A DNA stretch of 64,000 nucleotides from an uncultured virus (IMG/VR IMGVR_UViG_3300029964_000032) (IMGVR_UViG_3300029964_000032), one strand, 5' to 3'. Numbered from the stretch's first letter, positions 2,847 through 43,799 are shown. Notes: generated by a model not told the origin, from the letters alone. Made by a program: numbers and translations.

Positions 2847-2861
2847 GAAACATAAAACGAT

Positions 2862-3359: not shown

Positions 3360-3370
3360 AAACATTCGAC

Positions 3371-24883: not shown

Positions 24884-26842
24884 ATGGCAAGAAGAAAATT
24901 ACATAAGGCGAGTGCTGTCATGCCTCATGAAGGAATGGACAGCGTAGCTACAGCCAAGCACACGTTGGGCGGTAACCGTGCATTTGAGGTATTGTGGCAA
25001 GCCCAGCAGTATTGGCTTGCTATGGATACGTTCCGCAGAGACCGTGAACGTAACAAGAACTACACCTACGGACGGCAGTGGGATGACTACGTTTGTGTGA
25101 ATGGTCGGAAAATACGCGAAGAGGAACTCATCAAGAAGCAAGGTAATGTACCCTTGAAGAACAACCTCATTCGTCGTATGGTACAAGCTGTACTTGGTAT
25201 ATACCGCAGTCAAGCCAAGGAACCAACTTGTACGGCACGAGACCGCGACGAGCAGCGTTATGGCGAGACGATGAGTACCGTGTTGCAATGCAACATGCAG
25301 CTGAACCGCATGACAGAGATAAACGCACGATGTATGGAGGAGTTCCTTATATCGGGCTTTGTCGTGCAGCGTAAGTGGTATGGCTGGCGAGAAAACAAGC
25401 TGGACTGTTGGACTGACTATGTACAGCCCAACAACTTCTTCATCGATAACAACATGAGGGATTTCCGAGGTTGGGATTGCAGTTGTGTGGGCGAGGTGCA
25501 TGACATATCGTTTGAGGAATTGTGCGGACGCTTTGCCAAGGACGGAAACGATTACAACCGTCTGGCCGAGATATACAAGTTTGCCAAAGACAAATCGTAT
25601 CTCAGTGCTACTTTTGACAACTTCGGCTATCCTCTACAAGGTTATTATGACTTCCTTGTGCCATACGACACATCGAGGTGTCGTGTAATAGAAGTGTGGA
25701 GGAGAGAAAGCAAACCACGTGTCCGCTGCCATGACGTAAACAACGGCGATGTGTTCAAGATAGACATTGAGGATTTCCAAGCCCTTGTAACAGACGAAAA
25801 CAACAAGCGTTTACAAGAGGCCCGTGAGCTTGGTATGGACGAGAGCGATGTGCCGCTTATCCGTTGGGAGTGGTTTATGGATAGCTACTGGTATTATTAC
25901 ATGCTCACTCCGTTTGGTGACATTCTGGAAGAAGGCGAAACCCCATACGAGCACAAGAGCCATCCGTATGTGTTCAAAGCATATCCGTTCATCGACGGTG
26001 AGATACATAGCTTTGTCAGCAATGTAATAGACCAGCAGCGATACACAAACCGTTTGATTACGATGTACGACTGGATTATGCGAGCTTCGGCAAAAGGTGT
26101 GTTGTTGTTCCCGGAAGACTGCTTACCGAAGGGAATGTCAATGGACGACGTTGCCGACGAATGGGCACGCTTCAACGGCATCATCATGATCAGGACACCG
26201 AAGGCCGGAACGCCATTGCCTCAGCAGATAGCCAACAACTGCACACAGATAGGTATCTCAGAGTTGCTGAGCATGCAGTTGAAGTTCTTCGAAGACATAT
26301 CCGGCGTTAACGGCGCATTGCAAGGCAAGCCCGGTTATTCGGGTATGTCGGCCAGTCTGTACAATCAACAGGCACAGAACGCCTCAACGTCTCTGCTTGA
26401 CTTGCTCGACACGTTCTCTTCTTTCGTAAAAGAAGGTGCGTATAAGGACGTGAAGAACATTCAGCAGTTCTACGACACGCCACGTGTATTCAACATTGCA
26501 GGAAAGAACTCTACCATTGTGGAGTACGACCCGAAGAAGATACGCGACGTAGAGTTTGACCTTTCGATTGTGGAGAGCACAGCAACCCCAGCATACCGCG
26601 CTCTAACCAACGACATGCTTATGCAGTTGTGGGAAAAGAACGCTATCAGCGTGGAGCAGCTGTTGGAACACGGCGACTTTCCATTTGCCGACGAGTTGCT
26701 GCAGAGCATCAAGTCACAAAGGGAACAGCTGGAACAAGGCAAGGTTCCGGACGGCATTTCTCCGGAACTTGCGCAGCAGGTTCAGCAAAACGCAAACGCA
26801 TCTGCCATGCAACAGGCACAGCAGATGCTACAAGCGTCTTAA
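24884..26842 (+). CDS. Portal protein (P22-like podovirus type)
   Basis: 652 aa; NYTYGRQW, NNLIRRMV, VIDQQRYTNR, ISGVNGALQG motifs; Gln-rich C-terminus; next to terL. Confidence 0.82.
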   Translation: MARRKLHKASAVMPHEGMDSVATAKHTLGGNRAFEVLWQAQQYWLAMDTFRRDRERNKNYTYGRQWDDYVCVNGRKIREEELIKKQGNVPLKNNLIRRMVQAVLGIYRSQAKEPTCTARDRDEQRYGETMSTVLQCNMQLNRMTEINARCMEEFLISGFVVQRKWYGWRENKLDCWTDYVQPNNFFIDNNMRDFRGWDCSCVGEVHDISFEELCGRFAKDGNDYNRLAEIYKFAKDKSYLSATFDNFGYPLQGYYDFLVPYDTSRCRVIEVWRRESKPRVRCHDVNNGDVFKIDIEDFQALVTDENNKRLQEARELGMDESDVPLIRWEWFMDSYWYYYMLTPFGDILEEGETPYEHKSHPYVFKAYPFIDGEIHSFVSNVIDQQRYTNRLITMYDWIMRASAKGVLLFPEDCLPKGMSMDDVADEWARFNGIIMIRTPKAGTPLPQQIANNCTQIGISELLSMQLKFFEDISGVNGALQGKPGYSGMSASLYNQQAQNASTSLLDLLDTFSSFVKEGAYKDVKNIQQFYDTPRVFNIAGKNSTIVEYDPKKIRDVEFDLSIVESTATPAYRALTNDMLMQLWEKNAISVEQLLEHGDFPFADELLQSIKSQREQLEQGKVPDGISPELAQQVQQNANASAMQQAQQMLQAS

Positions 26843-26850: not shown

Positions 26851-28980
26851 TCAGATGGAAGCCTCGGAAACGGGGCTTCTGTCTTTTCTAAGTGTACGGT
26901 TAACAATAGGAACCCATTCAGGCATATCCATTTCCCGGAAGCAGATATGCAGACCTATTGCACGTGTCATAAGCAAGTCGTCATGTTTGCCAGTAATAGC
27001 ACCATACGCACCGTTCTGTTTTCGCTCATAGGTGTTGTATTCATCCAGACAGCGTTTGTCGCGCTCGATATAGAGCCGGTCGCGTACCTCCTTGATGAGG
27101 GTAGAGATAATCATCGGCTTTGTTGACACATTGGTATGGAAGCCATATTTACGCGGTGCGCCCTCCCTTATTTCATCCTCCGACTGCTTGCGTGCATACA
27201 AGTCCGGGTATATGTCTGAAATCTGATTGAGTATATATTGCGACTGGTCGCCACCTTCCACCTGACGCTCCTTGTCGTGAGTCTCCAACGTGTTAGACTC
27301 AATGACCAGAAGAGAATTGTCGTAGAACGCCGCTATCTGTGCTGCACGCCAAGCGAGTTGGTCTATGTCGCAATGTCCGTACCACTGAGCCACCACAGAC
27401 GGCGGCTCGCTACCATCAATCATACTAAGCCTGTCGAATACCACAATAACAGACCAGTCAGCTTTATTGGAACGCCCACCCACATCGACAACGGTAAGAT
27501 AACGGTTGACAACTTCGCAGCCTTCGAATGTTTCCGGCATTGCCCATATAGAAAGCAATCCTTGTCTGTCTGCACGGAAACGGAGATTGGAAAGTGCATC
27601 CTCTCCTTCGTCTCCATCAGCATATACCTCACCGATATACTGAGGCTGCTTGCAGAACCGCTCGAACTTCTTGACACGGTATTTGTCGAACACCATAGAA
27701 CCAGAATGAACGAAAGCCTCCACATCATCAGAAGGGAACTCGGAAGCCATTACAGCAAAGTCGTCCTTACCTGCACGCTCCTCTATGTACCAGTTGATAG
27801 CCTCCAGTGTAGCCCCTTTCTCCCATAACGACCAAAGGTAGCGTCCGGACTCCTCACGATTTGACGGCACATAGGCATTCTCTCTATTTTCGTACAGCCA
27901 TTGTGCAAATTCACGCATTTCGTCAGCCGAAGCAAACTGCTTGGAATACTGCTCAATCTGAAACCACGATATAAAAAGAGCTTCATATTGTGATTTGATT
28001 GTAGGATCTGCAGCAGCCGTATATTCTGTGTGGAAGAAGTTTCCTGTTCCATTCGGTGTACTCTCCATTACGATCATCGTGAATGGTTCCAAAAGAATAC
28101 CGGAACATGCCGAACGCACGATGTCCTGCGGTGACTTACCTTCTGTCTTTTGCCACAAACCGACCTCTGACAAATGCACAAGAGAATAGGCACCGCCACG
28201 GCATCCATTAGGACGCTCAGCAGTGCCAACCTTAATCTTGCAATTGCGTTGTGGTACGCGATGAGTGGAGCCAGACTTACCTACACCAACCAACTTCGGC
28301 TCGTTCTCGGAATATGCCTCACCCAGTTTATGCAGGAACTCTACCGGGTATCTGTCAATCATGAGGTCGAACATATCCTTGATTTCGTCAGAAGCCGCTC
28401 CTTGATGTGCAATGATAAGTGAATTTAGTCCCTTTCGATGGTTGAACTGAAGCCATGCCATGTAGAGCTGTGTTGTAGTAGAACCACCCCACTGTCGAGC
28501 CTTCAACAATATTAGTCGTATAGGGAGACGAGCTTTTCTCTTCGCCTCAAAACGAGACACCAAAATACGCTGCGGATAGTAAAGCCGGAACAACACGTCC
28601 TTACCAGCCTTCTTGTTGTGGATATAGACGAGCGTAGCCGCCCAGAAAGGGAAGTCGTGTTTGAAGCGTAGTCGTATGAACTTACGCGAGACCTTGATGT
28701 AATCATCATCGTTTGGCTCAACATGGAGAACAGACGAAAGAAACTTGTCGATAGACCCAGCCTTGACAAGTTTCTTCACCATTTGTATTTTCATCATCTC
28801 TACAGGGAGCCATTGGACGGGTATGGCAAAGTCATAGATACACACTCGCACACGTTCCCCTATGGACCCTTCACCCGTGACCGGGTCGAAGTGAGCGAAC
28901 ATCACCTCATTTCGCCGGTCGTTTTCAGCGAGTAAGCGTGCAATCTCTGTATCTATCATATTGGTTGTCATACCATCCAT
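26851..28980 (-). CDS. terL: Terminase large subunit
   Basis: Walker A-like LKARQWGGST, Walker B VHLSEVG, motif III ESTPNG, nuclease VDVGG and HDDLLM. Confidence 0.93.
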   Translation of the reverse strand: MDGMTTNMIDTEIARLLAENDRRNEVMFAHFDPVTGEGSIGERVRVCIYDFAIPVQWLPVEMMKIQMVKKLVKAGSIDKFLSSVLHVEPNDDDYIKVSRKFIRLRFKHDFPFWAATLVYIHNKKAGKDVLFRLYYPQRILVSRFEAKRKARLPIRLILLKARQWGGSTTTQLYMAWLQFNHRKGLNSLIIAHQGAASDEIKDMFDLMIDRYPVEFLHKLGEAYSENEPKLVGVGKSGSTHRVPQRNCKIKVGTAERPNGCRGGAYSLVHLSEVGLWQKTEGKSPQDIVRSACSGILLEPFTMIVMESTPNGTGNFFHTEYTAAADPTIKSQYEALFISWFQIEQYSKQFASADEMREFAQWLYENRENAYVPSNREESGRYLWSLWEKGATLEAINWYIEERAGKDDFAVMASEFPSDDVEAFVHSGSMVFDKYRVKKFERFCKQPQYIGEVYADGDEGEDALSNLRFRADRQGLLSIWAMPETFEGCEVVNRYLTVVDVGGRSNKADWSVIVVFDRLSMIDGSEPPSVVAQWYGHCDIDQLAWRAAQIAAFYDNSLLVIESNTLETHDKERQVEGGDQSQYILNQISDIYPDLYARKQSEDEIREGAPRKYGFHTNVSTKPMIISTLIKEVRDRLYIERDKRCLDEYNTYERKQNGAYGAITGKHDDLLMTRAIGLHICFREMDMPEWVPIVNRTLRKDRSPVSEASI
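26858..26879 (+). terminator. Hairpin at portal/terL convergence
   Basis: GAAGCCTCG-GAAA-CGGGGCTTC followed by TGTCTTTT. Confidence 0.6.
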
Positions 28981-29412: not shown

Positions 29413-29453
29413 AAAAGTTAAAAGTCAGTCCACATCTTATATAGGTATTTTTG
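29413..29453 (+). promoter_or_regulatory. Promoter for scaffold/capsid operon
   Basis: AAAAGTTAAA (G at 29417) and TATTTTTG 29446-29453. Confidence 0.7.
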
Positions 29454-29490: not shown

Positions 29491-30228
29491 ATGGCTGATA
29501 ACAACGGAGTTAAGAGCAGACGCGACCAACAGTTGGAACGGCTGCGAAAGAAATATCCCGACAAGAAGTTCGAGGATGATGAGGAGATTTACGGTCAGAT
29601 TTACGACGATTACGACCAATACGAGCAGGATCTTAGCGGCTACAAGGACAGGGAAAAGGCCATGTCCGACATGTTTGCCGCTGACCCGAGAAGTGCACAG
29701 TTCCTTGCTGATATGCACAATGGTAACGACCCCTACGTCGGGCTTGTAAAAAACTTCGGCATAGAAATACAGGACGTACTTGACGATCCTGAAATGCAGG
29801 AGAAGATAGCCGAGGCCAACAAGGACTATGTGGAGCGTGTAGCCAAGTCAAGACAGCTTGACGAGGAATATGAGAAGAACATGGACGCAAGTCTTGAAAC
29901 CCTTCGTCAGTTCCAAGAAGAGCGTGGCATGAGCGACGAACAGATTGACGCTGTAGTTGATGCCGTTTTGACCGTGGTTCGTGACGGTGTAATGGGCAAG
30001 TTCTCGAAAGAGACTCTTGCAATGTTCGTGAATGCCATCAACCATGACAGCGATGTAGCCTCAGCAAGTGAAGAGGGACGTGTTGCCGGACGCAATGACA
30101 AAATTGTGGAAGGCTTGCGCAAGCGAGACAAAGGCGACGGCACTGCACCACTGAACGGCAAGAATGGCGGTGCGCCCGGCAAACAGAAATCACAAAGCAT
30201 CTTTGACATTGCCAACGAAGCCATGTAG
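29491..30228 (+). CDS. Probable capsid scaffolding protein
   Basis: Acidic helical protein directly upstream of the capsid gene. Confidence 0.6.
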   Translation: MADNNGVKSRRDQQLERLRKKYPDKKFEDDEEIYGQIYDDYDQYEQDLSGYKDREKAMSDMFAADPRSAQFLADMHNGNDPYVGLVKNFGIEIQDVLDDPEMQEKIAEANKDYVERVAKSRQLDEEYEKNMDASLETLRQFQEERGMSDEQIDAVVDAVLTVVRDGVMGKFSKETLAMFVNAINHDSDVASASEEGRVAGRNDKIVEGLRKRDKGDGTAPLNGKNGGAPGKQKSQSIFDIANEAM

Positions 30229-30230
30229 CC

Positions 30231-30401
30231 ATGAAAGGAGAAGTCGTAAAGTTTCCTCCAGAGGGCAAGAAAGTAAAGCCAACGACCGGGAGTGCAGGGT
30301 TGAGAACCCAAGTGCCGGGCGCAATGGCATCAGTAAGCAATCTCGCGAGCGCGACAGGCGGTATAGCCCCCGGCAACCTCGCACAGACCGATAGCAAATA
30401 A
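30231..30401 (+). CDS. 56-aa protein paralogous to the major capsid N-terminal arm (not in ORF track)
   Basis: MKGEVVKFPPEGKKVKPTTGSAGLRTQVPGAMASVSNLASATGGIAPGNLAQTDSK; 22/38 ungapped identities to the capsid N-terminus; starts 2 nt after the scaffold stop. Confidence 0.8.
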   Translation: MKGEVVKFPPEGKKVKPTTGSAGLRTQVPGAMASVSNLASATGGIAPGNLAQTDSK

Positions 30402-30429
30402 CATTATTCACAAATTAAAATTTTAAGAC

Positions 30430-31950
30430 ATGGACGGAGAAAACGTACCAGTAGGTGGCACTACAACCACCACCCCTGCACCCGGAACAGCCGGTGTGCA
30501 GACTCAAGTGCCGGGAGCACCCACTACCGTCAGCGGAGTGGCAGGAGCGTCTGGCGGAGTCGGTCCGGGTAACCTCATTCAGAGTGACCTCGACCAAGAA
30601 CTCTACAAGTTCAAGAGTGACGACACACCGCTTATGCAGCTCATGCTGAATGCGCGTAAGGTAAAGGTGAACTCACCCGAAGTGGAACACTACATGATTG
30701 ACGAGCCACGTTCCAGTGTGACCTCGACAACTAAGGTAACGGCAGGAACAGCCAAGCAGTTCGTGCTTCCGTTGCTCGCCAACGATGCCGAAATCCCAAG
30801 ACCTTACGGCACCCTGCTTGTAAAGGGTGTGGACGGTTATGCCGCAGACGGCAAGACAAAGACTCCGGGCAAAGACCTCATGCTATTCGTAACCGGACAA
30901 GACCCAACCACGAACAACCCGATTGTGAGAGCCGTAAACGGTCCGAAGGCAAACACGACCGATGAGAGCTGTACCACTCCGGAAATTCCAGCCGGTTCAA
31001 CACTCATCATTCTTTCCAATGCTCTCTACGAGACACAGAAGAAAGTTGACCCCGACCTCATCGTGCCACAAGCACAGATGGTTTATCTTCAGAAGCGCGG
31101 CATGAACCAGATTGTATCTGACTACTACGAAGCGCAGAAGAAGAAAATTCCGTTCGGCAAGGCCGTGATTGCAGAAGCCGCCATTACCAACTTCAAGGTG
31201 CGCGGCAACCGTACTCTCTATGCAGGTCGTAAAGGCAAGATGACTGTTCAGACCCCCGAGGTCGGTGCACAGACCATCTACTTCACCGAAGGTGTGCGCT
31301 ACCAAGTGAAGAAGGAACTCAATCACACTGGCAAGTGGACAATTGAGGAAATCATCGCTTTGGCGAAGATGGTCTTTACAGGCGAGGACGTACCCAAGAG
31401 TGTTATTGCCCTTGCTGGCAAGAACTTCTTGGAGAATATCCAGTGCATCGACTACTCGAAGCACCCTGAAATTCAAATTACTACCAAGACCAACCCTGTA
31501 GGCTGGGTGGTGACCAATTTCCACACCGTGTTTGGTGACATCGAGTTCAAGCACGATCCAACCCTTGACCGTTTGAAGTGGAGCAATTCTGCATTTATCG
31601 TTGCGCCTGACCGTCTTGTGCACTACCAGTATTCGGCAGAGCACTCGTCGAAAGACCGTGTTGAGGGCGAGGAGGCAACACGCGAGGCAATCCTTGTGTG
31701 GGATGCACTTGCACTCAAAGGCTCGTGCCATATCTGGATTAACGGTGAGGGTGACAGCGAGAACAGCACAGCTGTGCAGATCCATCTGTGGGACAGCGCG
31801 GAAGCACCTACATCACCAGTTGAGGGAGGTGTGTACTACCTGTTGCAGGATTGTCCGGGCATCAATGCCGAGGCCGTTAGCGGTCAGATGTGGCAGTATA
31901 AGAGCGAGGCATGGATTGAGTATGCAGGTGAGGTTATGGCAACCGAGTAA
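30430..31950 (+). CDS. Major capsid protein
   Basis: 506 aa after scaffold; DDTPLMQL, YFTEGVRYQV, FHTVFGDIEFKHDP motifs resembling SU10/DUF5309-type capsids; terminator follows. Confidence 0.75.
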   Translation: MDGENVPVGGTTTTTPAPGTAGVQTQVPGAPTTVSGVAGASGGVGPGNLIQSDLDQELYKFKSDDTPLMQLMLNARKVKVNSPEVEHYMIDEPRSSVTSTTKVTAGTAKQFVLPLLANDAEIPRPYGTLLVKGVDGYAADGKTKTPGKDLMLFVTGQDPTTNNPIVRAVNGPKANTTDESCTTPEIPAGSTLIILSNALYETQKKVDPDLIVPQAQMVYLQKRGMNQIVSDYYEAQKKKIPFGKAVIAEAAITNFKVRGNRTLYAGRKGKMTVQTPEVGAQTIYFTEGVRYQVKKELNHTGKWTIEEIIALAKMVFTGEDVPKSVIALAGKNFLENIQCIDYSKHPEIQITTKTNPVGWVVTNFHTVFGDIEFKHDPTLDRLKWSNSAFIVAPDRLVHYQYSAEHSSKDRVEGEEATREAILVWDALALKGSCHIWINGEGDSENSTAVQIHLWDSAEAPTSPVEGGVYYLLQDCPGINAEAVSGQMWQYKSEAWIEYAGEVMATE

Positions 31951-32035: not shown

Positions 32036-32689
32036 ATGACAATGAAAAAGAAGAGAATAACCTACGGAGTGCACGGCATGATGGAATATCAATCTATCAT
32101 CAAGATAGGCAGAGCCACGCTCAAAGTATTGTTCACTGACGGCTCAATGACCGCCATCGGACAAAACCCTGCGAAGTACACGACAAGCGACTTCCTTGTG
32201 CAGCACGCTATTGAAAACAGTAGTGAGTTTAAGCGCGGACGCATTACGGTGGTGGACACCATTGAACTTGACGAGGAGGTACGCATTGAGCGTAATCCTG
32301 CCAAGCCAAGCACGCAGCAAGCACCATCCCCGGCAGAGGCAAAGCCAGTGACGGCAACAGCTGCCAAGGTTGAAGAACCACAAGACATAGCGGACGAGCC
32401 GACTGAGGAAACCAATGCAGTAGATGCTGCAAGTGCGGACACACCTGCTCCCGAAGTTGACATTGAACCTATCGAAGACGAGGTTCCATCTACAGAAGAA
32501 GATGCAGCCGAGCTTAGCGAGAGCGATAACGAAGACGGCCTTACAGAAGTTGAGTTCAGTACCAATCAGGAAGCCAAGGACTATCTCACGAAGACCTTTG
32601 GCGTGAAGAGTGGTACGATGAAGAACCGTGCTGACATCGTAGCCATTGGTGAGGCAAACGGAGTTAAAATCATTTTTGTAACCGAGTAA
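32036..32689 (+). CDS. Hypothetical protein with acidic Pro/Ala linker
   Basis: 217-aa ORF within the structural operon. Confidence 0.7.
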   Translation: MTMKKKRITYGVHGMMEYQSIIKIGRATLKVLFTDGSMTAIGQNPAKYTTSDFLVQHAIENSSEFKRGRITVVDTIELDEEVRIERNPAKPSTQQAPSPAEAKPVTATAAKVEEPQDIADEPTEETNAVDAASADTPAPEVDIEPIEDEVPSTEEDAAELSESDNEDGLTEVEFSTNQEAKDYLTKTFGVKSGTMKNRADIVAIGEANGVKIIFVTE

Positions 32690-32702: not shown

Positions 32703-33338
32703 ATGGTGTACAAAATCGAAGTTGTGGAGCGTGACGTGCGCATTGCCATTGACGAGAACAAGACAAGCGAGCAGCTCATCAGCGATGAGGACATTGACAC
32801 CTTATCGTTGAATGACATCATCCGCTCAAAGATAGTGGAAGCCGTTCGGCGTGTAGAGTCGTCCGCTCCCGTTCACTACTTGGAAGAAGGTCACGTATTT
32901 GGTGATGCCATCTACTGGGAGGAGAACGGAAGCGGTTGGACTCTGCTGCCCGATGATTTCATGCGTCTTGTTGCCTTTCGCATGAGCGACTGGGAACGCA
33001 CCTGCTATATGGCCATATCAGCAGACGACCCATTGTATGACCTGCAATCGTCAAGATACAAGGGTATTCGTGGCAATGTCCAGAAGCCGGTGTGTGCCGT
33101 AGTGAACCGTGCCGAGGGCAAGGTGTTGGAGTTCTACAGTTGCAACAGTGAGGAAGCCTACGTGAAACGTGCCTCATACATTCCTTATCCGAGCATAGAC
33201 GAGGAGGACGGCATAGACATCAGCGAGCGTTGTTACACAGCCGTGGTCTATACTACGGCTGCATTAGTATTAACCGCCTATGGTGCGAGCGAGCAAGCAG
33301 CCGCAATGAACACCTTGGCAAAAAGCATTTTTGAATAA
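32703..33338 (+). CDS. Probable head-tail adaptor / structural protein
   Basis: 211 aa; LLPDDFMRLV motif; position; stop overlaps next start. Confidence 0.55.
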   Translation: MVYKIEVVERDVRIAIDENKTSEQLISDEDIDTLSLNDIIRSKIVEAVRRVESSAPVHYLEEGHVFGDAIYWEENGSGWTLLPDDFMRLVAFRMSDWERTCYMAISADDPLYDLQSSRYKGIRGNVQKPVCAVVNRAEGKVLEFYSCNSEEAYVKRASYIPYPSIDEEDGIDISERCYTAVVYTTAALVLTAYGASEQAAAMNTLAKSIFE

Positions 33339-36300
33339 TGAGTTCAATACCAACAAAACAGATAGATGGTGACGTTGCGGTTGGTCGTGACGTTAACATC
33401 GGCGGCAAGGCCACCATACGCGGTTCGGCAAAGGTCGGCCACAATCTGACCGTTGACGGCTGGCTTGAAGCCAAGAACATAAAAGGCCCGAACAAAGGCC
33501 TGTTCAAAACGGCGGCACAGCTACGCGAGGCTTACCCTAATCCTCATGAAGGATGGTGGGCGTTGGTGACCGTAGAAGGCAGTGCAGCGTCAGATCATCT
33601 TGGCCAACTCTATGTAGCTGACGGTGGTACATGGGTAGCGCAAGTTGACAGCAACGGTAATCCGCTGCTGAAGGGTAATCCTACGGTTGATAGCACCGAG
33701 TACATGGAAGCCGTGGAGGGAATGACAGCCGACCTCGAAGCCGTGAAGGTGGACGTTAACCAGAACAAGGAAGACGTGCGCAGCCTACGTTCTACACAGA
33801 CCACGCAAGGCGAGAGCATCAACACCCTCAACACAAAGATGGGCACAGCTCAGAGCGACATCAACACACTGAAGAAGACTGTAAGCGACAACAAGACTGA
33901 ACTTGCGAGCAGCATCAGCGGTGTGCAGAAAGACCTCACATCATTCAAGAACACCAAAGGACAGCCCAACGGACTTGCGCCGTTGGACGAACAGAACCAG
34001 ATACCTTCGCAGTATCTGCCCGACTATGTGGACGACGTGCTTGAGTTCAACGGAAGCTTCAATGACATTACTTCGCAGATGATGTCGTTAAACAAATACT
34101 CAACGGACGAGAACTGTAGCGTTGTCTTCAGCAAAGACGCTGGGGCTTTTGTGCTGAAATATACGCAGCCATCGAAAACGGAAGGTGACTTGCGCCCGAC
34201 CATCACTTACTACAACAACTGGATAGATGGTGACCTTTACGGTGAGGGCACTATGAAAGGCCGTGTGCCACACAGCGGCAAGATTTACATAGACGTTACA
34301 GCCAACAAGACTTATCGTTGGGGAGGCAGCACGCTTGTTGCAATAGGTTCGGACTTGGCATTGGGCCATACCAGTGGCACTGCATATCCCGGTGACGAGG
34401 GAGCCGAGCTAAATAGCACACTCCAGACAGCGAACATACGCATTGAGGGTATAAACATTCTTCGCTTTGATGGAGTGTGGGACGGTACCGGCAAGGCACC
34501 GAGTCGTGGTTTGTGGTATGCTCCAAGTTTGGACTACGAAGGAGAGTGGTGCTTCCGTAAGTTCGGAGGTGTTAGTACAGAGACATACGGTTATCCGGAA
34601 GAAATGTATAACACCGACAGCGTAGGACGTGCGGACCATATCTATTGTTGTGCAGACGAGTTGTTCCGTATCGTTGACAAGAAGATGCAGAGGATTGGCG
34701 GCAGCGGCAGCTCTGCCAGCATTTACAACCCGACGGTGGAGCAGGGAGGACACTACTATGTGTTGTGTGATACCGACGATACGGCCAATTCAGCTGTTCA
34801 CGCAGCGAAGGAAAATGGCAAGGCTGCAGTAGGCCTGATGATAACCTTCGCATTGAAGAAAGGCACTTGGAAGACTTACCAGTATATCGGAGCCAATACG
34901 GAAGATAATAACTGGTACGACACAGAGAACTGGAAAGACTTCGGCTCGATGGTACAGGGTTCAGAGTCGATGATAGACATTGACATCATAGCCCCTCTAC
35001 CTACAGGCTTCTACACCCTTGGCACCGCACTTGCAGCTCTGAAAACCTATCAAGAGACAACAAGTGTGAACTATCAGAAGCGCGGTTTGGTGATAAGTTA
35101 CACGACGGAAGCCAATAAGGTAGAGACCAAACAGTATCAGGGCGACTCCATCGCGGACTTCTACGAGGCCGGGCTTTGGCAGGACTTCGGCGGCGGCAGT
35201 AAACTTGTGGCGAGCGACACGATGGAAGCTGGCGGTACAGACGCTTTCTCTACAGGAGGAGCGTATAAGGTTGTGCCAACGGAGATAGAGGCTACAGAGG
35301 AAGAAGGCAGCGTATCACTGAAGCTAAAAAACAAGGCTGGCGACACCCTGTCTGAAGCCCAGTTCAGTGTGGGCACCGGTACTGGAGGTGGCGGTGGAAC
35401 TACACTTGCCATCAACTTTGAGAACGACCCCTTCTATGTCCGTGCAGGAGGTACAGCCATACTGAAAGCCGCCATCCGCAGTGTGACCCAGCTATCCGAT
35501 GGATCATCGCAGGACAACAAGATACAGAGTGTGGTGTTTATCAATCGCACGACCAAGACCACCGTAGCCTCATTCAAGCCCAATCAGGCAAGCAGTTCCT
35601 CGTTGAAGTCGTACACCTTCGAGTTTGACCTAAGCACCATTGCAGCCAGTGCTGGCAGCGTAGAGCTGCAAGCCGTAGCCACCGATGCCACCGGCAAGAC
35701 AGCCACGAGAAACGTGGAAATGATAGCCGTTGATGTGACCGTAGAGAGCAGCCAGACACTGAGCTATACGAAGAGCACCACATTGCAGGTTGGCGGTCAG
35801 AAGGTAAGTATCCCCATGTATCGTTTCCCAAACAATGCCTCAGACAAGGGTATCCAGACGAAGATAGAGATATACCGCAACGGCGTTTGGGAGACGCTGG
35901 AGAGTGTATTGGTTAAGGACACCTACACCCATAACGTGACCATCGACCCACAAGGCATGGGCCACGGCGCATATCCTCTGCGCATACAAGGGCAGGACGT
36001 AGCATCAGGACTGGAAGGTAACACGCTTCATACCGCAGTTATGGTGATAGAGCAGCGCGAGAGCGTGAGCGACTACACGAAGCCTATCATTGTGGCACGA
36101 TGGTACGACGACAGCGATGGCAAGACAAAGCTTTTCAAGACCGTCAGTTTTGACATCGCCTGTTATCAGCGAGACAACGCCAACCCAAATGTAGAGGTGA
36201 AGGTGAAGAACGAGACCGCTGACGAGACAGAAACGATTGCCAACAAGGTTATGAACCGCAGCAGTTACTACACGATAGAGAAACGTATTGTGGGTTATAA

Positions 36301-39300
36301 CGACGGTGACACATTGATCTTCGACGCAACGTGTGGCGAGGTACATCTGGCGGAGCAACTAAAAGTTGTTATTGACGGCAGTATGCTTGCCATCAGTGAG
36401 ACCGAAGGCGCATACTACAAATTGAACTTTGCCGGCAGAAGTAACGACGACATCGACAAGAGTATCAAAGCCACCTGCTCAGACGGCAGCATGGTGGAAG
36501 TGAAGGTAAACGGCAGCAACTGGTCGAGCAACGGTTTTGTCGCAGACAACTTCGGTACAGAAAAAGCAGACGGCAGAATGGCACTACGTGTGGCTGAGAA
36601 TGTGACGGCAGCATGTAGCGACACACCATTGGCAAGCAAGGACATACCCACCAACGGTATGGCACTAAGCTTTACATTCAAGGTTAAGAACATTGCCAAA
36701 CGTAATGCAAAGATTATGTGGTGTATGGGCGAGCGATTGGGTTTTGTGCTTACTGGAGAGAAATTCATTGTGACCACCGCAGGTGATAGCGATGAGGCTT
36801 TGAAAGACGTTCAGACAACCGCCGCCACCTCCTACCTTGACGACACCGTATATCGCATAGACATTGTGATAGAGCCACAAGCCAGAGCACCCTATAGCGG
36901 TGTGATGCTGTGCAAGGTGTTCCAAAACGGTGATGCTGCAGCGTGTGTTCCCATCAGCACCGTCAACGGCTTCCCTAACATTGCGGACATGATACACTTC
37001 GACGGTACAGATGCCGACCTCTACCTATACGAGGTGGTACGCTGGAACACCTACTATGACTTCATCCAAGCATTCAACAACTACATCGTGAACCTCACAG
37101 ACACGACTGCCATGCTGACCGAGTATGAGCAGAACCAAGTTATGAGCGATGTTACAGCTGAGGGCACGACGAAACCACGCCCCGATATGCAAAAGTTGTT
37201 AGACCGCGGTATCATGGTTGTGGCAATGACGCGCACTTCGGACAAGAACCTTAGCAAAGACGGTGGCGCGGTAACGGACAGCGAGATATATTATCCTGAC
37301 TACATCGAAGGTTTGAGGGACAAAAAAACGTCCGTTTTGATGGACTGGTATATTTATTTCCCCGACCGTCCGTGGGCAAACTGCGTTATTGAAGCCATCC
37401 CGACGACAAACCAAGGAACTTCGACACTTGCCTACGGTGTCAAGAATAAGAAGGGCAAGGGTAAGAAGGCGAAGAGGATTAGAATGCTCTACACAAGAGA
37501 GCAGATTAGTGAGATGTACAATGGTGATGAGACTATTCTTGCCAAGTATGACGACGCAGCAGCTCTTGCGAAGAAAAAGAAGATCCGCGTGAAGGAAGGC
37601 AGTACGCCTATACAGAACATTACCATCAAGGTTGACTACTCGGACTCTGCCGGTGCCAACAACTGTGCCATGATGGAGCTTATGAACGACACGCAGATAG
37701 CCCTTGGCAGTGACTATATGACCCCTGCACAGCGACACAACACCGACAAGAGCGAAGAACTGCATACGAGCATTGACGGTGTGACGTGTGCCCTCTTCCG
37801 TACCGACTACCGCATAGGTCAAGACAAGGGGACACAGGCCGCTACACTTCCTGAGAACGCCTACTTCCACTCGAAGGCAAACTTCAATGCCGACAAGGGT
37901 AATCCCCACTTCTTCGGTTTTGAGGACGTTAAGGGATATAATTACGGTTGCGTGAACTATGGCGACTTCAAGGAAATGGTAGCTCCGAGAGATACCACCA
38001 TTGAGACCTACAAGGCCAGTGTTCTTTCAGACACAAGCTCATTGATACCGGGCACGCTGTATATGCTGAGTGAGTTCTGTGGCCCGGAAACACGCTTCAT
38101 TGAGAACGATGGTACCGGAACCATGAAAGAGATAGGTGAGGTGGCCGTGGAAGACAGTCATGTGCTTGACAAAACACTCTCCGAGGTACAGGCAGACGAT
38201 GTTAAGAACTACGACTGGGGAACAGCCTACAAGACATCTGACGGAAAGTATGTGCAGTATAAAGGAGGAGCATGGAAGGACACCACAGGCACCATGACTT
38301 ATGACAATGCCACTAAGAAATGGAGTGTGCAAGGCCGCGTTCTGAACCCTGTGGAGTGCTACGAGTACAGGCAATATCAAGAGTTCTGTTGGCAGCAGGG
38401 CGTGAACAGTGTGGACGATATGCTAAAGACGCTGCACACCGACGATGGTGACGTTCCAGTGTGGAGCACTTATTACGAAATGCGCTACCCTGACGACGAC
38501 GATTTGAACGCCCTGTATGCGTCGGGCAAGAAAGTTCCGTACCAGCTGTATAGAGAGTTGGCCTTCTGTCAGCAGTGTAACCAGAACTTGACCGACAATG
38601 CCGAAGAGAACGCCGCCAAGAACCCTGATGGCAGCGAAAAGGTATTCAACGGAGCCGGTGCAAGCACAACCATTACCCTTGGTGGCAAAACCGTAGCCGG
38701 TACCAAGGAGAACCGCAGAAAGAAATGGCAGCAGGAAATGCACAAGTATTACTCTCCCCATTCAACTCACTGCTATGTTGTGGCGAGCGACTACAAAGCC
38801 ACTGTGGACCAGCGAGCCAAGAACATGATGATTGCTGTTTACTTGGAGACCGACGGAAGAATGCGTTACTACTTCAACCATTGGTATGACGGAGACTCAT
38901 GTGACGAGGCGGACAACGACTGCTACCTAACCATCCCTTGGGATATGGACGGAGCAGCAAGCCATCTGTATCAAGGATGGGACGGCGTAATGTTCCAACA
39001 GAGCTATGCCTTGTTTGACAGAGGCGAAGGTGTATGGCTTGATGATGCAGGCACGGAGACGCTGACTCTTCATGACACGGCGGCAAAGATGCGTGCTACG
39101 AAGACCAAGGCCGGCCTTGAAATTTTCTCTACTGACGGCTGCTACCGTTACTGGATGATAGACCGCATCTTGAAATGGCCAAAGGTGGTAAGTTCGTTTG
39201 ACGGAGAGCGCAAGTATATAGAAACAGCTACCGCTGCCGACAACCACTATCCTGCCTTGCATGGTCTGCGACTGGAGAGTCTGCCAGCCTTCCAGCGCAA

Positions 39301-41899
39301 GCGTTTCGCATACAGAGACGGCTACTTCCAGACTGGTGATCTGTTCCGCCATTTCTTCCAAGACCGTGTTATGGGACCCATCACGGTGAAGATAACGGCA
39401 GCACAGGATGGTTACTTCGCCATGGGCGTGGACTCCACCTCGTCAGCCAAGTACAGTTGCTATCTAAAGGAAGGTGAGAGTCACACCTTTACAGAGGTTG
39501 CAGCAGGAGAAGGCGGCAAGCTCATATACATCTTCGGCGCAGACAAGATAAGCGAGCTTGACATCAGCGGCTGTTCTCCTAAGAATTCAAACTGGATGCT
39601 TAGCGAGTGCACCTTACTGCGCAAGCTTGTCATTGGAGGTGAAGGATATACTCCAGCCTATACCACCGACATACTGAGCACGCTGAACTTAGGACAGATG
39701 CCTTTCTTGGAAGAGATAGACATCAGGAACACGATGATCACCGACGTGAACGCCTCGCTGTGTCCTCGTCTAAGAAAGGTGTTGGCAGAAGGCAGTCTGT
39801 TAAAGTCAATCACACTTGCAGAGAGTTCGCCTATTGATACGCTGCACCTTCCCGGTACAATGACAACTCTGTACTTCAAGAACCTTCCTAATCTGACCTA
39901 TCCCGGTGGTTTGACCATTGACGGAATGGCTAAGGTGACGAAGCTGTTTTTGGACGGAAGCCCGAAGATAGATGCCATGAAGCTGCTGCGAGAGGTAACC
40001 ACGGCCAGTGCGCTGAAGAGTGTACGCATAGCCGGCCTTGCTGCTACGGAAAGCGTAGAGCTGCTGCGAGCCATCAAGAACAATGGAGCCGTAGGCATAG
40101 ACGCAAACGGAGCAGACTATGACGAGAGCGGCCAGTGTAGCGGACTGATAGGCAGATGGATCCTGACCCTACTTTCAGAGGAGAGTGAGATTGCGGAGCT
40201 GAAGCGTTACTTCCCGAACCTTGAAGTTATAAATTCGCAATTCTCTGTCATAAAGATAGACGATGTGGTGAGCGGTGACTTCTGCGAGAAGTACAGCAAC
40301 CCCGAGAACCAGACAGGAGCCGATTACGATAAGAGCTTTGTGGCAAGCGGCCACACATTGAAGATATTGCAGGACACCCATGCTTACAAGTGTACGTACA
40401 ACTCCAAGCTGAAACAGATGGAGGGTGTGCAATTGAGCGATGCAGACTTCAATAAACTTGCTAATGGTGAGAGCTTCGATGTGAGCGACAGCGCAGGTGA
40501 AGGCTTTGACATCTTCCACCACTTGCCTCATTATTGGTACAAGGGCGTGAACGACTACAAGAACCAAGTAAAGTATCACTTTAACTCAATTACAGATAAA
40601 GAGCCGTTATCGACTGTAAACAACCGCAAGGAGGCATTGCTTTCTGAGCTGCTCTATGCAGAAAATACAGGCGTGTATGCTGACGAGGCAACAGTTGGCG
40701 AGACAGTTGGCGATAATATTATTGCCACAGCAGCCAATGCGAATGTCTACCGTATGGACGTTGAGGGCATGAAGCAGGTAAGATGGCCGGGACTTAACCA
40801 CGCTCGTCTTGGTGCCGTCTTTACGGATGCAAACGGCAAGATCGTGGGCAAGTTCATTATGATGGTGAGTCACGCTTACTTCGACTTCTCAATCGGTAAC
40901 TATGTGTTCTGCGATGTGCCAAACGGTGCCAAGTGGATATACTTCACTTCGTATCGTGACATTGGCGACATAAAGTGTCTTGCTGTTGACAGCGAGCATA
41001 TAGAAGCAATAGAACCAGAATGGACTGAGCACACCATTGGTGAGTACGACAGCCTTGTGGGAACATACCCCATCACTATTGACGGACTGAAACGACCTCG
41101 CAGCATATCAGGTGCTGTACGTTCGAAGAAAGGTGACGGCACTTCACAGACCTCTGCAGAATGGGCATACGACACAGACGGTAACCCGACCGAAATGCCG
41201 ACCGGGACAATACACTACACAGCCAAGGATTTCCAGAATAGTGCGCACATGCGCGGAGAGGGCTACCAACTCCAAGACTATGAGCAGCACAAGGAAATCA
41301 GTAACCTGTGGTGGGCGACCCATGGAACGACCGATGAGCAGTCTGTTGTGGGCAATGGTGCACATGACAGCACACTCAACAGTCGTGACGACATCGGCAT
41401 GGCGGACACATCGTATGTGGGCAACTCCATGAACTCAATCATGGGACTCAAACACTATGTGGGCTGTGATAGTGAATGGATGGACTACATTGCAGGAAAT
41501 GTGAAGAGCTACGAGACGTTCTACAAGAACCGTTGCGTGGAGACGAACGAAGATCCTGTAGATTATGTGTTCCACATCTTCGACCCGATTAAGAAGACGG
41601 AGCGAACCGTGCAGAGTGTGAACAGCAACGGCAACTGTGTAGTAAGAGTGGTGCATGGTGCCAAGTGTGACATCTTGCCAAGCAAGGTGCACCAGACAGA
41701 CACCAGCAAATACACTACACACTATGCAGCCGGAGTATGGTTCCCGGGAAGTAGAGGCCGCTGTGTTCTGCGGTCTGGCGGCGTCTCGTATGCGAGCGGC
41801 GGTCTCGCTTATGCGTACGCGAACTACGCTTCTTCGTACTCGTACACGTACTTCGGTGGTCGGCTCGCCTTCCGCGGAAAATTCGTCATAGTCGGATAA
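33338..41899 (+). CDS. 2853-aa tail fibre / receptor-binding protein, DGR target
   Basis: N-terminal coiled coil, LamG-like beta region, CotH-like and LRR-like segments, C-terminal CLec-type end (VLRSG...FGGRLAF) containing VR. Confidence 0.85.
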   Translation: MSSIPTKQIDGDVAVGRDVNIGGKATIRGSAKVGHNLTVDGWLEAKNIKGPNKGLFKTAAQLREAYPNPHEGWWALVTVEGSAASDHLGQLYVADGGTWVAQVDSNGNPLLKGNPTVDSTEYMEAVEGMTADLEAVKVDVNQNKEDVRSLRSTQTTQGESINTLNTKMGTAQSDINTLKKTVSDNKTELASSISGVQKDLTSFKNTKGQPNGLAPLDEQNQIPSQYLPDYVDDVLEFNGSFNDITSQMMSLNKYSTDENCSVVFSKDAGAFVLKYTQPSKTEGDLRPTITYYNNWIDGDLYGEGTMKGRVPHSGKIYIDVTANKTYRWGGSTLVAIGSDLALGHTSGTAYPGDEGAELNSTLQTANIRIEGINILRFDGVWDGTGKAPSRGLWYAPSLDYEGEWCFRKFGGVSTETYGYPEEMYNTDSVGRADHIYCCADELFRIVDKKMQRIGGSGSSASIYNPTVEQGGHYYVLCDTDDTANSAVHAAKENGKAAVGLMITFALKKGTWKTYQYIGANTEDNNWYDTENWKDFGSMVQGSESMIDIDIIAPLPTGFYTLGTALAALKTYQETTSVNYQKRGLVISYTTEANKVETKQYQGDSIADFYEAGLWQDFGGGSKLVASDTMEAGGTDAFSTGGAYKVVPTEIEATEEEGSVSLKLKNKAGDTLSEAQFSVGTGTGGGGGTTLAINFENDPFYVRAGGTAILKAAIRSVTQLSDGSSQDNKIQSVVFINRTTKTTVASFKPNQASSSSLKSYTFEFDLSTIAASAGSVELQAVATDATGKTATRNVEMIAVDVTVESSQTLSYTKSTTLQVGGQKVSIPMYRFPNNASDKGIQTKIEIYRNGVWETLESVLVKDTYTHNVTIDPQGMGHGAYPLRIQGQDVASGLEGNTLHTAVMVIEQRESVSDYTKPIIVARWYDDSDGKTKLFKTVSFDIACYQRDNANPNVEVKVKNETADETETIANKVMNRSSYYTIEKRIVGYNDGDTLIFDATCGEVHLAEQLKVVIDGSMLAISETEGAYYKLNFAGRSNDDIDKSIKATCSDGSMVEVKVNGSNWSSNGFVADNFGTEKADGRMALRVAENVTAACSDTPLASKDIPTNGMALSFTFKVKNIAKRNAKIMWCMGERLGFVLTGEKFIVTTAGDSDEALKDVQTTAATSYLDDTVYRIDIVIEPQARAPYSGVMLCKVFQNGDAAACVPISTVNGFPNIADMIHFDGTDADLYLYEVVRWNTYYDFIQAFNNYIVNLTDTTAMLTEYEQNQVMSDVTAEGTTKPRPDMQKLLDRGIMVVAMTRTSDKNLSKDGGAVTDSEIYYPDYIEGLRDKKTSVLMDWYIYFPDRPWANCVIEAIPTTNQGTSTLAYGVKNKKGKGKKAKRIRMLYTREQISEMYNGDETILAKYDDAAALAKKKKIRVKEGSTPIQNITIKVDYSDSAGANNCAMMELMNDTQIALGSDYMTPAQRHNTDKSEELHTSIDGVTCALFRTDYRIGQDKGTQAATLPENAYFHSKANFNADKGNPHFFGFEDVKGYNYGCVNYGDFKEMVAPRDTTIETYKASVLSDTSSLIPGTLYMLSEFCGPETRFIENDGTGTMKEIGEVAVEDSHVLDKTLSEVQADDVKNYDWGTAYKTSDGKYVQYKGGAWKDTTGTMTYDNATKKWSVQGRVLNPVECYEYRQYQEFCWQQGVNSVDDMLKTLHTDDGDVPVWSTYYEMRYPDDDDLNALYASGKKVPYQLYRELAFCQQCNQNLTDNAEENAAKNPDGSEKVFNGAGASTTITLGGKTVAGTKENRRKKWQQEMHKYYSPHSTHCYVVASDYKATVDQRAKNMMIAVYLETDGRMRYYFNHWYDGDSCDEADNDCYLTIPWDMDGAASHLYQGWDGVMFQQSYALFDRGEGVWLDDAGTETLTLHDTAAKMRATKTKAGLEIFSTDGCYRYWMIDRILKWPKVVSSFDGERKYIETATAADNHYPALHGLRLESLPAFQRKRFAYRDGYFQTGDLFRHFFQDRVMGPITVKITAAQDGYFAMGVDSTSSAKYSCYLKEGESHTFTEVAAGEGGKLIYIFGADKISELDISGCSPKNSNWMLSECTLLRKLVIGGEGYTPAYTTDILSTLNLGQMPFLEEIDIRNTMITDVNASLCPRLRKVLAEGSLLKSITLAESSPIDTLHLPGTMTTLYFKNLPNLTYPGGLTIDGMAKVTKLFLDGSPKIDAMKLLREVTTASALKSVRIAGLAATESVELLRAIKNNGAVGIDANGADYDESGQCSGLIGRWILTLLSEESEIAELKRYFPNLEVINSQFSVIKIDDVVSGDFCEKYSNPENQTGADYDKSFVASGHTLKILQDTHAYKCTYNSKLKQMEGVQLSDADFNKLANGESFDVSDSAGEGFDIFHHLPHYWYKGVNDYKNQVKYHFNSITDKEPLSTVNNRKEALLSELLYAENTGVYADEATVGETVGDNIIATAANANVYRMDVEGMKQVRWPGLNHARLGAVFTDANGKIVGKFIMMVSHAYFDFSIGNYVFCDVPNGAKWIYFTSYRDIGDIKCLAVDSEHIEAIEPEWTEHTIGEYDSLVGTYPITIDGLKRPRSISGAVRSKKGDGTSQTSAEWAYDTDGNPTEMPTGTIHYTAKDFQNSAHMRGEGYQLQDYEQHKEISNLWWATHGTTDEQSVVGNGAHDSTLNSRDDIGMADTSYVGNSMNSIMGLKHYVGCDSEWMDYIAGNVKSYETFYKNRCVETNEDPVDYVFHIFDPIKKTERTVQSVNSNGNCVVRVVHGAKCDILPSKVHQTDTSKYTTHYAAGVWFPGSRGRCVLRSGGVSYASGGLAYAYANYASSYSYTYFGGRLAFRGKFVIVG
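41757..41866 (+). repeat. DGR variable repeat (VR)
   Basis: 110-nt ungapped match to 42104-42213 with 13 mismatches, all at TR adenines. Confidence 0.97.
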
Positions 41900-42103: not shown

Positions 42104-42213
42104 GCCGCTGTGTTCTGCGGTCTGGCAACAACTCGAATGCGAACAGCGGTCTCGCTTATGCGAACGCGAACAACGCTTCTTCGAACTCGAACACGAACTA
42201 CGGTGGTCGGCTC
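42104..42213 (+). ncRNA. DGR template repeat (TR)
   Basis: Ten AAY codons in the VR frame; 24 adenines; lies between target gene and RT. Confidence 0.97.
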
Positions 42214-42314
42214 AAATTCTAAGGTTAACAATAATCGGAGGCCTCTGACGTGGCACGGGATTGTCACAACCACACTCCGAGGGGTTAGAGCCTCGGCAAA
42301 AGCATAACAAAAAT

Positions 42315-43799
42315 ATGGAAAGCCGGAACACGACATTAACCACATGTGGGGAGTGCGTCAACTCCCCACAGGACAGGAAGGCTGTCAATCAACTGGAAGA
42401 CTTATTAGGACAGGTAGAAGCTCCAACTTCTATCTGTTTTCCTTTATATAACCTCATCCCGGAAATCATTTCGGACGAAAACATGGAACGCTCGTTCAAG
42501 CGTGTCATGTCGAACCTTCATAACGCCGACACGCGAAGCGGAATAAAATGGAGGGAGAAGGTTGTTATAGATGGTGTGGAATGTACTCCACGCATGGTGC
42601 GCTATATGAAGCGCAAGAAAGAAATTATTGCCGAGCTGAAAGAACAAATAGGCAATGGCACATTTCGTGTTGAGCGTCTGTCTTCGTTTGAGGTGGACGA
42701 TGGTCCGAAGAGAAGAATGGTTCAAGCGCCTCCTGTTGTGAAACGTATAGGCTGCAATGCCATCATGGAGATTGTGGAGAAACACCTTTCGCCATTGCTA
42801 ATAGAAAACACGGCAGCTTCGATAGAAGGACGCGGCCCACACGGACTATTCCACAAGATGCAGGAAGTGAGAGCCGAGAACCCCGACCTTATATATTATT
42901 ATCAAAGCGACTATGAAGGTTATTATGACCACATACTGCACGACAAGATGATTGACATCATCAAGCAGTATATCGCTGACCCTTTGCTGCTACCCATACT
43001 TATAAACTTTGTTAAGGCATTGCACCCAGAAGGTAAAGTAGGCATCAGCAAGGGACTACGCTCCTCGCAGTTCTTCGGTAACCTGTACCACAATGACATT
43101 GACCATGCCATGATAGAGGAGTGTGGAAAAGATAACTACAACCGCTTTTGTGACGACATATACATACTTGGTGACAATAAAAAAGAGTTGTGGAAACACA
43201 GAGACACACTGCACAGACTAAGTAAACCCTACAATCTGATAATCAAGCCTAGTGAAAAGGTTGCTCCAGTGAGCGCAGGAATGGATGCACTGGGTTATAT
43301 TGATTATGGTGACCACTCACGAATACGCAAGCGCACAAAGGTAAACGCTGCAAGGAAACTCGCCAAGATAAAGTCGAGAAAGCGAAGGCAACAAATTATA
43401 GGCTCGTTCAAAGGAATGGCATGTCATGCGGACTGCCAGCATTTATATTATATATTAACAGGTAAAAATATGAAGAAATTTTCAGAAATGGGCGTGACCT
43501 ATAAGCCAGCAGACGGAAAGAAGCGTTTTCCGGGCAAGGTTACACGCTTGGGTGACATCGTGAACATCCCGGTAGAAATTCACGACTACGAGACACTGGA
43601 CACGAAGTTTGGCGAAGACCGCTACTTAGTGTCGTTCAAGAACCCTGCGACACAGGAATGGGGCAAGTTCTTCACCGCTTCGGACGAGATGAAAGGCATC
43701 CTTGACCAGATAAGCGACATCGAGGATGGCTTTCCGTTTGAGACCGTCATCAAGTGCGAACAGTTTGACGGCAGCAAGCGAAAGTATAACTTCACCTAA
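42315..43799 (+). CDS. DGR reverse transcriptase with C-terminal extension
   Basis: ASIEGRGPH, YYYQSDYEGYYDHI, GISKGLRSSQFFGNLY (DGR SQ motif), RFCDD, MDALGY; start uncertain (42261, 42315 or 42483). Confidence 0.93.
   Translation: MESRNTTLTTCGECVNSPQDRKAVNQLEDLLGQVEAPTSICFPLYNLIPEIISDENMERSFKRVMSNLHNADTRSGIKWREKVVIDGVECTPRMVRYMKRKKEIIAELKEQIGNGTFRVERLSSFEVDDGPKRRMVQAPPVVKRIGCNAIMEIVEKHLSPLLIENTAASIEGRGPHGLFHKMQEVRAENPDLIYYYQSDYEGYYDHILHDKMIDIIKQYIADPLLLPILINFVKALHPEGKVGISKGLRSSQFFGNLYHNDIDHAMIEECGKDNYNRFCDDIYILGDNKKELWKHRDTLHRLSKPYNLIIKPSEKVAPVSAGMDALGYIDYGDHSRIRKRTKVNAARKLAKIKSRKRRQQIIGSFKGMACHADCQHLYYILTGKNMKKFSEMGVTYKPADGKKRFPGKVTRLGDIVNIPVEIHDYETLDTKFGEDRYLVSFKNPATQEWGKFFTASDEMKGILDQISDIEDGFPFETVIKCEQFDGSKRKYNFT

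Follow-up and report, generated by a model that had tools for sequence, protein, structure and literature searches.

What is a separate copy of the beginning of a capsid gene doing next to the complete gene? This question is raised by a 64,000-nucleotide (nt) stretch of DNA from an uncultured virus (IMGVR_UViG_3300029964_000032), henceforth the window, by which we mean the whole stretch and which corresponds roughly to the entire genome of a temperate phage of gut Bacteroidales. Within its head module, a small open reading frame (ORF; henceforth S) lies between a gene for a scaffold-like protein and the gene for the major capsid protein (MCP; coordinates in Table 1). The label "scaffold" is based on position, composition and membership in PHROG 22323 (unknown function) alone. 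A first-pass annotation of this DNA had described S as having an intact start and stop and as tightly coupled to the scaffold stop, and the sequence agrees: S begins with an ATG 2 nt past the TAG of the scaffold-like gene (30226-30228) and ends with a TAA 28 nt ahead of the MCP ATG (30430). The same annotation had drawn attention to a likeness between S and the MCP N-terminus over 38 residues and had proposed that S is maintained as a peptide, with three candidate roles: occupying N-arm sites left vacant, tuning capsid assembly, or serving as a decoy.

S is a paralog of the MCP N-terminus

The likeness is real. S and the MCP N-terminus share 22 identical residues over 38 ungapped positions, a count on which the annotation and our recount agree and for which the peptides given earlier are exact. 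Among 2000 composition-preserving shuffles of S, the best 38-residue window reached at most 14 identities and none (0/2000) reached 22. BLASTP aligned the two with 18 identities in 31 positions (pairwise E=6e-5). A profile of 21 S sequences run against all six frames of the window found the motif in exactly two places, S itself (E=2e-31) and the MCP N-terminus (E=8e-17), with the next best match at E=1.5. Moreover, comparison of 70 S sequences with 24 MCPs by hhalign gave a probability of 99.45% (E=4e-22), with an alignment that is colinear from residue 1 of each; S thus copies the MCP gene from its start codon through codon 55. The homology spans the whole ORF, from Met1 (M-x-G-E-x-V...) to its end, against MCP residues 1-55, such that the 38 residues singled out earlier understate its extent. 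We conclude that S is a paralog of N-terminal residues 1-55 of the MCP. The possibility that S is a full-length MCP paralog of the T4 gp24 type was ruled out, as S has 56 amino acids (aa) and aligns only to MCP residues 1-55.

The core motif of the MCP N-terminal domain reads G-S/T-A-G-L/V-x-T/S-Q-V-P-G-x3-T-V-S-x2-A-x-A-T/S-G-G-I/V-x2-G-N-L/F. Positions G20, S/T21, A22, G23, T/S26, Q27, G30, T34, V35, S36, A39, A41, T/S42, G43, G44 and G48 are kept equally in S and in the MCP, and ten of them (G20, G23, G30, T34, V35, A39, A41, G43, G44 and G48) are at least 90% conserved in both paralogs. The linker at positions 9-19 differs, being K/R/P-rich in S and T/P/G-rich in the MCP, and the mean net charge is +2.5 for 56 distinct S sequences versus -4.6 for 82 distinct MCP arms. 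The window MCP as a whole is acidic (net charge -13), as is the scaffold-like protein (net charge -18). We define the S family here as stand-alone ORFs of 50-66 aa that lie between a scaffold-like gene and the MCP gene and carry the core G-S-A-G-L-x-T-Q-x-P-G...T-V-S...A-T-G-G-I..G; the window ORF has these features and matches the family profile at E=2e-31.

Conservation, distribution and history of S

The first-pass annotation had taken disruption or absence of S in close relatives, together with a lack of expression, as the mark of a decaying duplication. Scanning IMG/VR with the MCP returned 77 loci; the 72 that were fetched, together with the window, provide 73 scaffold-MCP junctions of close and middle-distance relatives. 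S is intact (53-66 aa) in 69 of these, representing 46 distinct nucleotide and 35 distinct protein sequences, and because many of the contigs stem from one large data set, the junctions are not independent samples. Its start codon and length (52-66 aa) are conserved among relatives, and it stays intact across MCP divergence down to ~45-60% identity. Three junctions (L075, L077 and L078) have only a spacer of 60-80 nt and no S. At one other locus (L035:2953-3123) a one-base length change in a C-run frameshifts S, while L036, with an identical MCP, has an intact copy; the break is either an assembly error or a very recent loss.

S is also constrained at the protein level. The median ratio of nonsynonymous to synonymous substitution rates (dN/dS, or omega) by the Nei-Gojobori method is 0.22, and a codon model (GY+F3X4) estimates omega at 0.143 for S (46 sequences) versus 0.155 for the first 53 codons of the MCP gene (38 sequences). 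When omega was set to 1 on the same tree, the log likelihood for S fell from -3156.6 to -3353.1, a gap of 196 units that is somewhat exaggerated since kappa was also fixed in this run.

The family extends well beyond these junctions. A word-index protein search yielded 63 S clusters at 90% identity, all of 52-74 aa and none named, and an exhaustive profile search of 1.84 billion representative proteins yielded 157 clusters (50% identity) at E<=1e-3. Most of the 157 stand alone at 42-90 aa. Roughly ten others are MCPs (486-541 aa) whose N-terminus is matched (first 36-82 residues), and the intermediate-length matches that we examined are truncated or frameshifted MCP fragments. No fusion of S other than to the MCP was seen among the 157 clusters. 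P0064 (895 aa, 8 hits) was discarded as an unrelated repeat protein that shares only the 11-residue TVSNVASATGG. P0065 (78 aa) is an S variant whose N-terminal part is partly duplicated internally, with the profile matching two stretches, and could be a real variant or an assembly chimera.

We also considered whether S is expressed as part of a neighboring protein. In the 69 intact loci, S starts 2-5 nt past the scaffold stop in 54, overlaps it by 4 nt in 11 and lies 11 or 24 nt away in the remaining 4; its frame relative to the scaffold gene is -1 at 42 loci and +1 at one, and at the other 26 the two share a frame. The gap from S to the MCP gene in relatives is 9-54 nt and occurs in all three phases. 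As the frame of S varies against both neighbors, recoding into a fusion is not conserved, and we rejected fusion by readthrough or frameshifting for want of a constant frame relation to scaffold or MCP. Longer ORFs (87-137 aa) in L082, L087, L116, L124 and L115 were likewise rejected as fusions: they are extensions to an upstream start codon that overlap the scaffold 3' end in another frame.

Judged by its relatives, then, S is a real, independent reading frame under purifying selection and a maintained gene. The proposal that S is maintained as a peptide is upheld by the intact frame in 69/73 junctions, the omega of 0.14, the 157 clusters and the absence of a conserved frame relation permitting fusion, and the disruption or absence in close relatives that would mark decay is not what the junctions and dN/dS values reveal. 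S has no match in Pfam, PHROGs or NCBIfam, its profile matches no PDB sequence at E<=10, the ESM Atlas holds no match at 0.9 or above, and PADLOC assigned 0 families to S, MCP and scaffold. By these searches S is an unannotated, MCP-derived small-protein family lacking a Pfam, PHROG or NCBIfam model. Its members are encoded in the head modules of temperate phages, which come from genome assemblies of Prevotella, Muribaculaceae and Bacteroidaceae as well as from metagenomes of gut and other origin.

S is also represented in RNA libraries. RNA-library contigs of four studies cover it, and two span the scaffold-S-MCP region (window 30113-30941 and 30031-31100); these are assembled contigs with possible DNA carry-over and attest to presence in RNA libraries rather than to proven transcription or translation.

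To gauge how widely S is distributed, two further MCP scans added more distant relatives, and removal of duplicate MCPs left 122 distinct MCPs from viral contigs. S accompanies 90 of these lineages (including the frameshifted L035 and L115, where an upstream start lengthens the ORF) and is lacking in 32, while the N-terminal arm motif of the MCP itself is kept in 122/122. In bacterial genome assemblies, 80 loci were found, 20 of them truncated or unusable; S is present in 32 of the 60 evaluable loci and absent in 28. Their titles are mostly Bacteroidales (Prevotella, Prevotellamassilia timonensis Marseille-P2831T, Muribaculaceae and Bacteroidaceae), and a few bins bear other labels that may be binning errors. 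On an MCP tree built by FastTree with the N-terminal columns removed, the presence or absence of S changed at least five times. Lineages without S join the scaffold gene straight to the MCP gene by a 28-77 nt spacer. The flanking head genes are the same with or without S, the two genes downstream of the MCP are not correlated with it, and no other head gene co-occurs with it. Since S is absent in some of the more distant lineages, it is an accessory, dispensable gene.

The sequences also bear on the origin of S. S is 46.7% identical to the MCP arm of its own genome and 46.3% to all arms, with mean identities of 59% among S-S pairs and 68% among arm-arm pairs. When the S sequences and the 122 arms were placed on a joint tree, 87 of the 89 S sequences grouped in a single clade separate from the arms (SH-like support 96), and the well-supported branches do not force more than one origin of S. 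As S is no closer to its own arm than to others and falls into one clade, the likeness is kept by selection on each copy, which fits separate purifying selection on S and the MCP copy without gene conversion or concerted evolution. These comparisons indicate that S is the product of an old tandem duplication of the MCP gene 5' end (start codon and ~55 codons) that probably happened a single time.

The N-terminal domain that S copies is not shared by all MCPs of this kind. The Bacteroides phages BS-TP4, BF1-TP2 and BKO1-TP3 have a homologous MCP body (PF17236 SU10_MCP, formerly DUF5309) and the same order of head-module genes, yet their MCPs align to the window MCP only from residue 48-54 onward, at 24-28% identity. 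This makes the N-terminal domain a feature of one MCP subfamily. BS-TP4 and BF1-TP2 differ from the window phage in lacking S, as annotation joins the scaffold-like gene directly to the MCP gene, and in having MCPs without the N-terminal motif. BS-TP4 is a temperate Bacteroides salyersiae phage with a diversity-generating retroelement (PMC12694917), and the accessible text of that report makes no mention of an S-like gene.

Among S-bearing relatives, L169 (MCP 92% identical) is embedded in a 1.23-Mb assembly scaffold from Prevotellamassilia timonensis Marseille-P2831T and may be an integrated prophage in this named strain; a further one, L170, belongs to Muribaculaceae Isolate-002. Membership of the window phage in the Quimbyviridae, which are described as myovirus-like with genomes of ~75 kb (PMC8008677), was considered and not established.

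Possible roles of S in the phage head

A major question is what a second, untethered copy of the MCP N-terminal domain contributes. The S family probably helps to build or stabilise the phage head, and two related readings compete as to its mechanism, an accessory subunit and an assembly-phase mimic. Our tentative preference, somewhat short of an even bet, is that S is a virion-associated, dispensable accessory subunit resembling a plug or cement protein. We lean this way because of the accessory phyletic pattern, the position resembling that of lambda D, and the complementary charge. A patchy pattern such as that of S (90/122 lineages, 32/60 bacterial loci, at least five gains or losses) is typical of decoration proteins, and in lambda the decoration gene D lies between the genes for the scaffold Nu3 and the MCP E.

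AlphaFold2 with a 70-sequence alignment models S as a compact unit with short strands and a helix at residues 35-42 (mean predicted local distance difference test score, pLDDT, 88.3; predicted template-modelling score, pTM, 0.57). The model suggests an autonomous mini-domain instead of a floppy or disordered arm, and the term "arm" used in the first-pass annotation may therefore convey the wrong picture. Given a common core that independent selection has preserved in both copies, S most likely adopts the fold of the N-terminal domain and shares its receptor. As an accessory subunit, S would be translated from the scaffold-S-MCP operon through reinitiation after termination at the scaffold stop, adopt the fold of the MCP N-terminal mini-domain and bind the same receptor surface in the head. 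Being untethered, it could occupy N-domain sites in trans, sitting at sites left empty by MCP-borne domains or at additional sites, while its basic, lineage-specific linker might help adhesion to the acidic shell or to DNA.

Several observations speak against an accessory subunit. S is lost in ~1/4 to 1/2 of lineages and so is not needed for the basic architecture. The pLDDT may be over-confident, as S is a Gly-rich 56-mer with few regular secondary-structure elements. No fold matched the S model: Foldseek found 0 matches in the PDB, none of the 48,161 chains in a VIA-wide comparison reached Z>=2, and in BFVD nothing scored better than E=6, such that no known decoration fold (gpD-like, Soc, Ig-like or others) emerged from these structure searches. 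The MCP model, built from 24 rather similar sequences, is poor (mean pLDDT 51.5, residues 1-93 below 50, and ~30 in the region equivalent to S). Finally, in the clear recombinant L040/L045, described below, S was inherited along with the scaffold gene rather than the MCP body, which a scaffold-linked role fits at least equally well. In a Foldseek search with this low-confidence MCP model, the capsid of Vibrio phage VP1 was the best and only match below 1e-3 (E=9e-4, TM-score 0.14-0.17), the rest being mostly noise.

Known systems offer partial parallels. Lambda gpD, phage 21 SHP and other decoration or cement proteins are likewise products of small, dispensable and patchy head genes, with D similarly placed; they share no sequence or fold likeness with S, which derives from the MCP itself. 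T4 gp24, a vertex protein that forms pentons, is a paralog of the MCP gp23; it too was born by duplication of an MCP gene, is encoded adjacent to it and is accessory in the same shell, but it is a full-length HK97-fold paralog, whereas S copies the first 55 residues only and is unable to build a capsomer. Picornavirus VP4 and the HK97 delta domain are N-terminal parts of capsid proteins that become separate small polypeptides with a role of their own; they are released by proteolysis, whereas S comes from a separate gene and the MCP retains its own copy. CpmB of the SaPI elements, which mimics the C-terminus of the helper-phage scaffold, is also small and redeploys, in trans, a short module for capsid-assembly interactions; it differs in copying a scaffold motif and in being encoded by a phage parasite, whereas S copies the MCP N-terminus and is encoded by the phage.

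The alternative that survives best is that S modulates assembly. Soluble S would mimic the MCP N-domain and compete, for instance, for the scaffold C-terminal tail or for a lattice site; it might cap the scaffold before assembly or aid scaffold exit, and would not be retained in the virion. We regard this as possible though on balance unlikely. Precedent exists in P22, where the N-arm of the coat protein binds the scaffold C-terminus. The S start abuts the scaffold stop in 69/69 intact loci, which suggests that S output is tied to that of the scaffold.

The C-terminal tail of the scaffold-like protein is informative in this regard. All 19 aligned scaffolds carry the tail S-[IMV]-F-x-[LIV]-A-x-x-A (F237, A240 and A243 invariant) and pair with an MCP bearing the N-terminal domain, 18 of them at S-bearing loci. 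The scaffolds of BS-TP4 and L040 share 68% identity over 225 residues, after which that of BS-TP4 continues into a different tail; the BF1-TP2 scaffold has a different tail as well, and the MCPs of both phages are devoid of the N-terminal domain. The scaffold tail thus co-varies with the MCP type. This is compatible with binding of the tail to the N-domain, and equally with binding to the MCP body, which also differs between the MCP types (24% identity). An acidic tail would be better matched by a basic S than by the acidic MCP copy. The scaffold genes compared here are L040:2204-2938 and BS-TP4 (L001) 6004-6795; their similar bodies, unrelated tails and partner MCPs of only 24% identity suggest modular exchange, the breakpoint lying immediately ahead of the tail.

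S also tracks the scaffold at L040/L045. Compared with the window, the scaffold of these loci is 48-49% identical, S 50%, the MCP arm 61-63% and the MCP body 80-81%, so that scaffold and S are as divergent from the window as those of distant clades. These values indicate one recombination event in which S moved with the scaffold, and suggest a mosaic head module whose recombination joint falls close to where the MCP gene begins. As evidence for a modulator this is weakened by L040/L045 being a single event, in which adjacency alone explains co-inheritance. Nor do we know of a natural, phage-encoded example of such a modulator. If S did act in this way, it would be a mimic of the phage's own capsid that times scaffold engagement or release or limits off-pathway assembly, a built-in regulator derived from a capsid-gene fragment, which we hold to be a minority prospect. 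To our knowledge, and in the text exposed by literature searches, a capsid-fragment regulator of head assembly has not been described for any tailed phage.

A counter-defence decoy, in which S would pose as the MCP N-terminus and so saturate or block an immune sensor by which the host recognises it, is improbable. Capsid-sensing defences exist in other hosts, the patchy distribution with at least five gains or losses is typical of counter-defence genes, and S does keep by selection its likeness to an abundant late protein. By contrast, S is fixed between scaffold and MCP in the late head operon at all S-bearing loci and would thus be made together with its supposed target, not earlier. A mimic would moreover trigger capsid-activated sensors instead of blocking them, the high conservation (omega 0.14) bears no sign of arms-race diversification, and PADLOC gave no match.

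Still less probable is a translational relay, in which the S frame merely passes ribosomes from scaffold to MCP and the peptide is functionless. S closely abuts the scaffold stop and a short AT-rich spacer precedes the MCP, as a relay would have it, but purifying selection acts on the amino acids (omega 0.143) and is concentrated on positions of the MCP-shared motif, S has a confident predicted fold, and lineages without S link scaffold directly to MCP by the spacer given above. A decaying, functionless remnant of a duplication, to which the frameshift in L035 and the absence of S in 32/122 lineages could be credited, is very improbable and already contradicted by the conservation data: S is intact down to ~45-60% MCP identity with conserved start, length and omega, including in L036.

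Whichever partner S binds, it marks the first 55 MCP residues as an autonomous functional module. It also constitutes a clean natural case of a capsid-gene fragment long kept as a separate gene beside the full-length copy, with opposite charge and the same core; full-text literature searching, within the text it exposes, returned no description of a free-standing MCP N-terminus paralog. For structural virologists S offers a handle on head building in a non-model Bacteroidales phage, and the relative with S in the Prevotellamassilia timonensis Marseille-P2831T assembly may open the question to experiment.

Layout of the surrounding locus

Table 1. Features of the head module around S, in window coordinates.
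Feature	Position	Strand	Description
Portal	24884-26842		Pfam P22_portal, E=3.7e-45
Large terminase	26851-28980	-	PHROG 2
Small divergent gene			Between large terminase and scaffold-like gene
Scaffold-like gene	29491-30228	+	244 aa from ATG 29491; ORF opens at TTG 29482 (248 aa); PHROG 22323, unknown function
S	30231-30401	+	56 aa, ATG start, TAA stop, net charge ~+4; free-standing paralog of MCP residues 1-55
S-MCP spacer	30402-30429	+	28 nt, AT-rich
MCP codons 1-55	30430-30594	+	N-terminal domain duplicated by S
MCP	30430-31950	+	506 aa; PF17236 SU10_MCP

The MCP passes the PF17236 gathering threshold (37.7 versus 24.1 bits, E=2.1e-9) over residues 264-399 only. Against PDB sequences, the MCP profile gave only chance kinase matches (E ~0.03) and the profile of the scaffold-like protein no match (all E>=0.14). 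A Bacteroides -7-type promoter word occurs upstream of the scaffold-like gene (29446-29453), and no other from there to the MCP. As the word is not enriched in the window (34 observed versus 31.9 expected), we did not rely on it.

The gene following the MCP (32036-32689, + strand, 217 aa) encodes a protein with conserved termini around an acidic low-complexity centre rich in A/P/E; it is found in 108/108 relatives whose sequence extends far enough downstream to check, and its sole match is PHROG 23743 (unknown function). The window starts with an integrase-like ORF (125-1711, + strand, Phage_int_SAM_5), and just upstream of the portal gene lies one ORF of 6752 aa (4567-24825, + strand) with Pfam matches to InPase (E=4.7e-52), N6_Mtase, a ddrB-like ParB domain and SNF2/Helicase_C, which looks like a giant "polyvalent" multi-enzyme protein; BS-TP4 carries a comparable gene at record positions 1511-17686. 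The window also contains a diversity-generating retroelement, with a pair of 110-nt repeats that are 88% identical (41757-41866 and 42104-42213) and a reverse transcriptase gene (42261-43799). The variable repeat lies at the 3' end of a gene encoding 2853 aa (33338-41899) and the template repeat is the copy adjoining the reverse transcriptase; mismatches in the shared stretch always have A in the template repeat and another base in the variable repeat.

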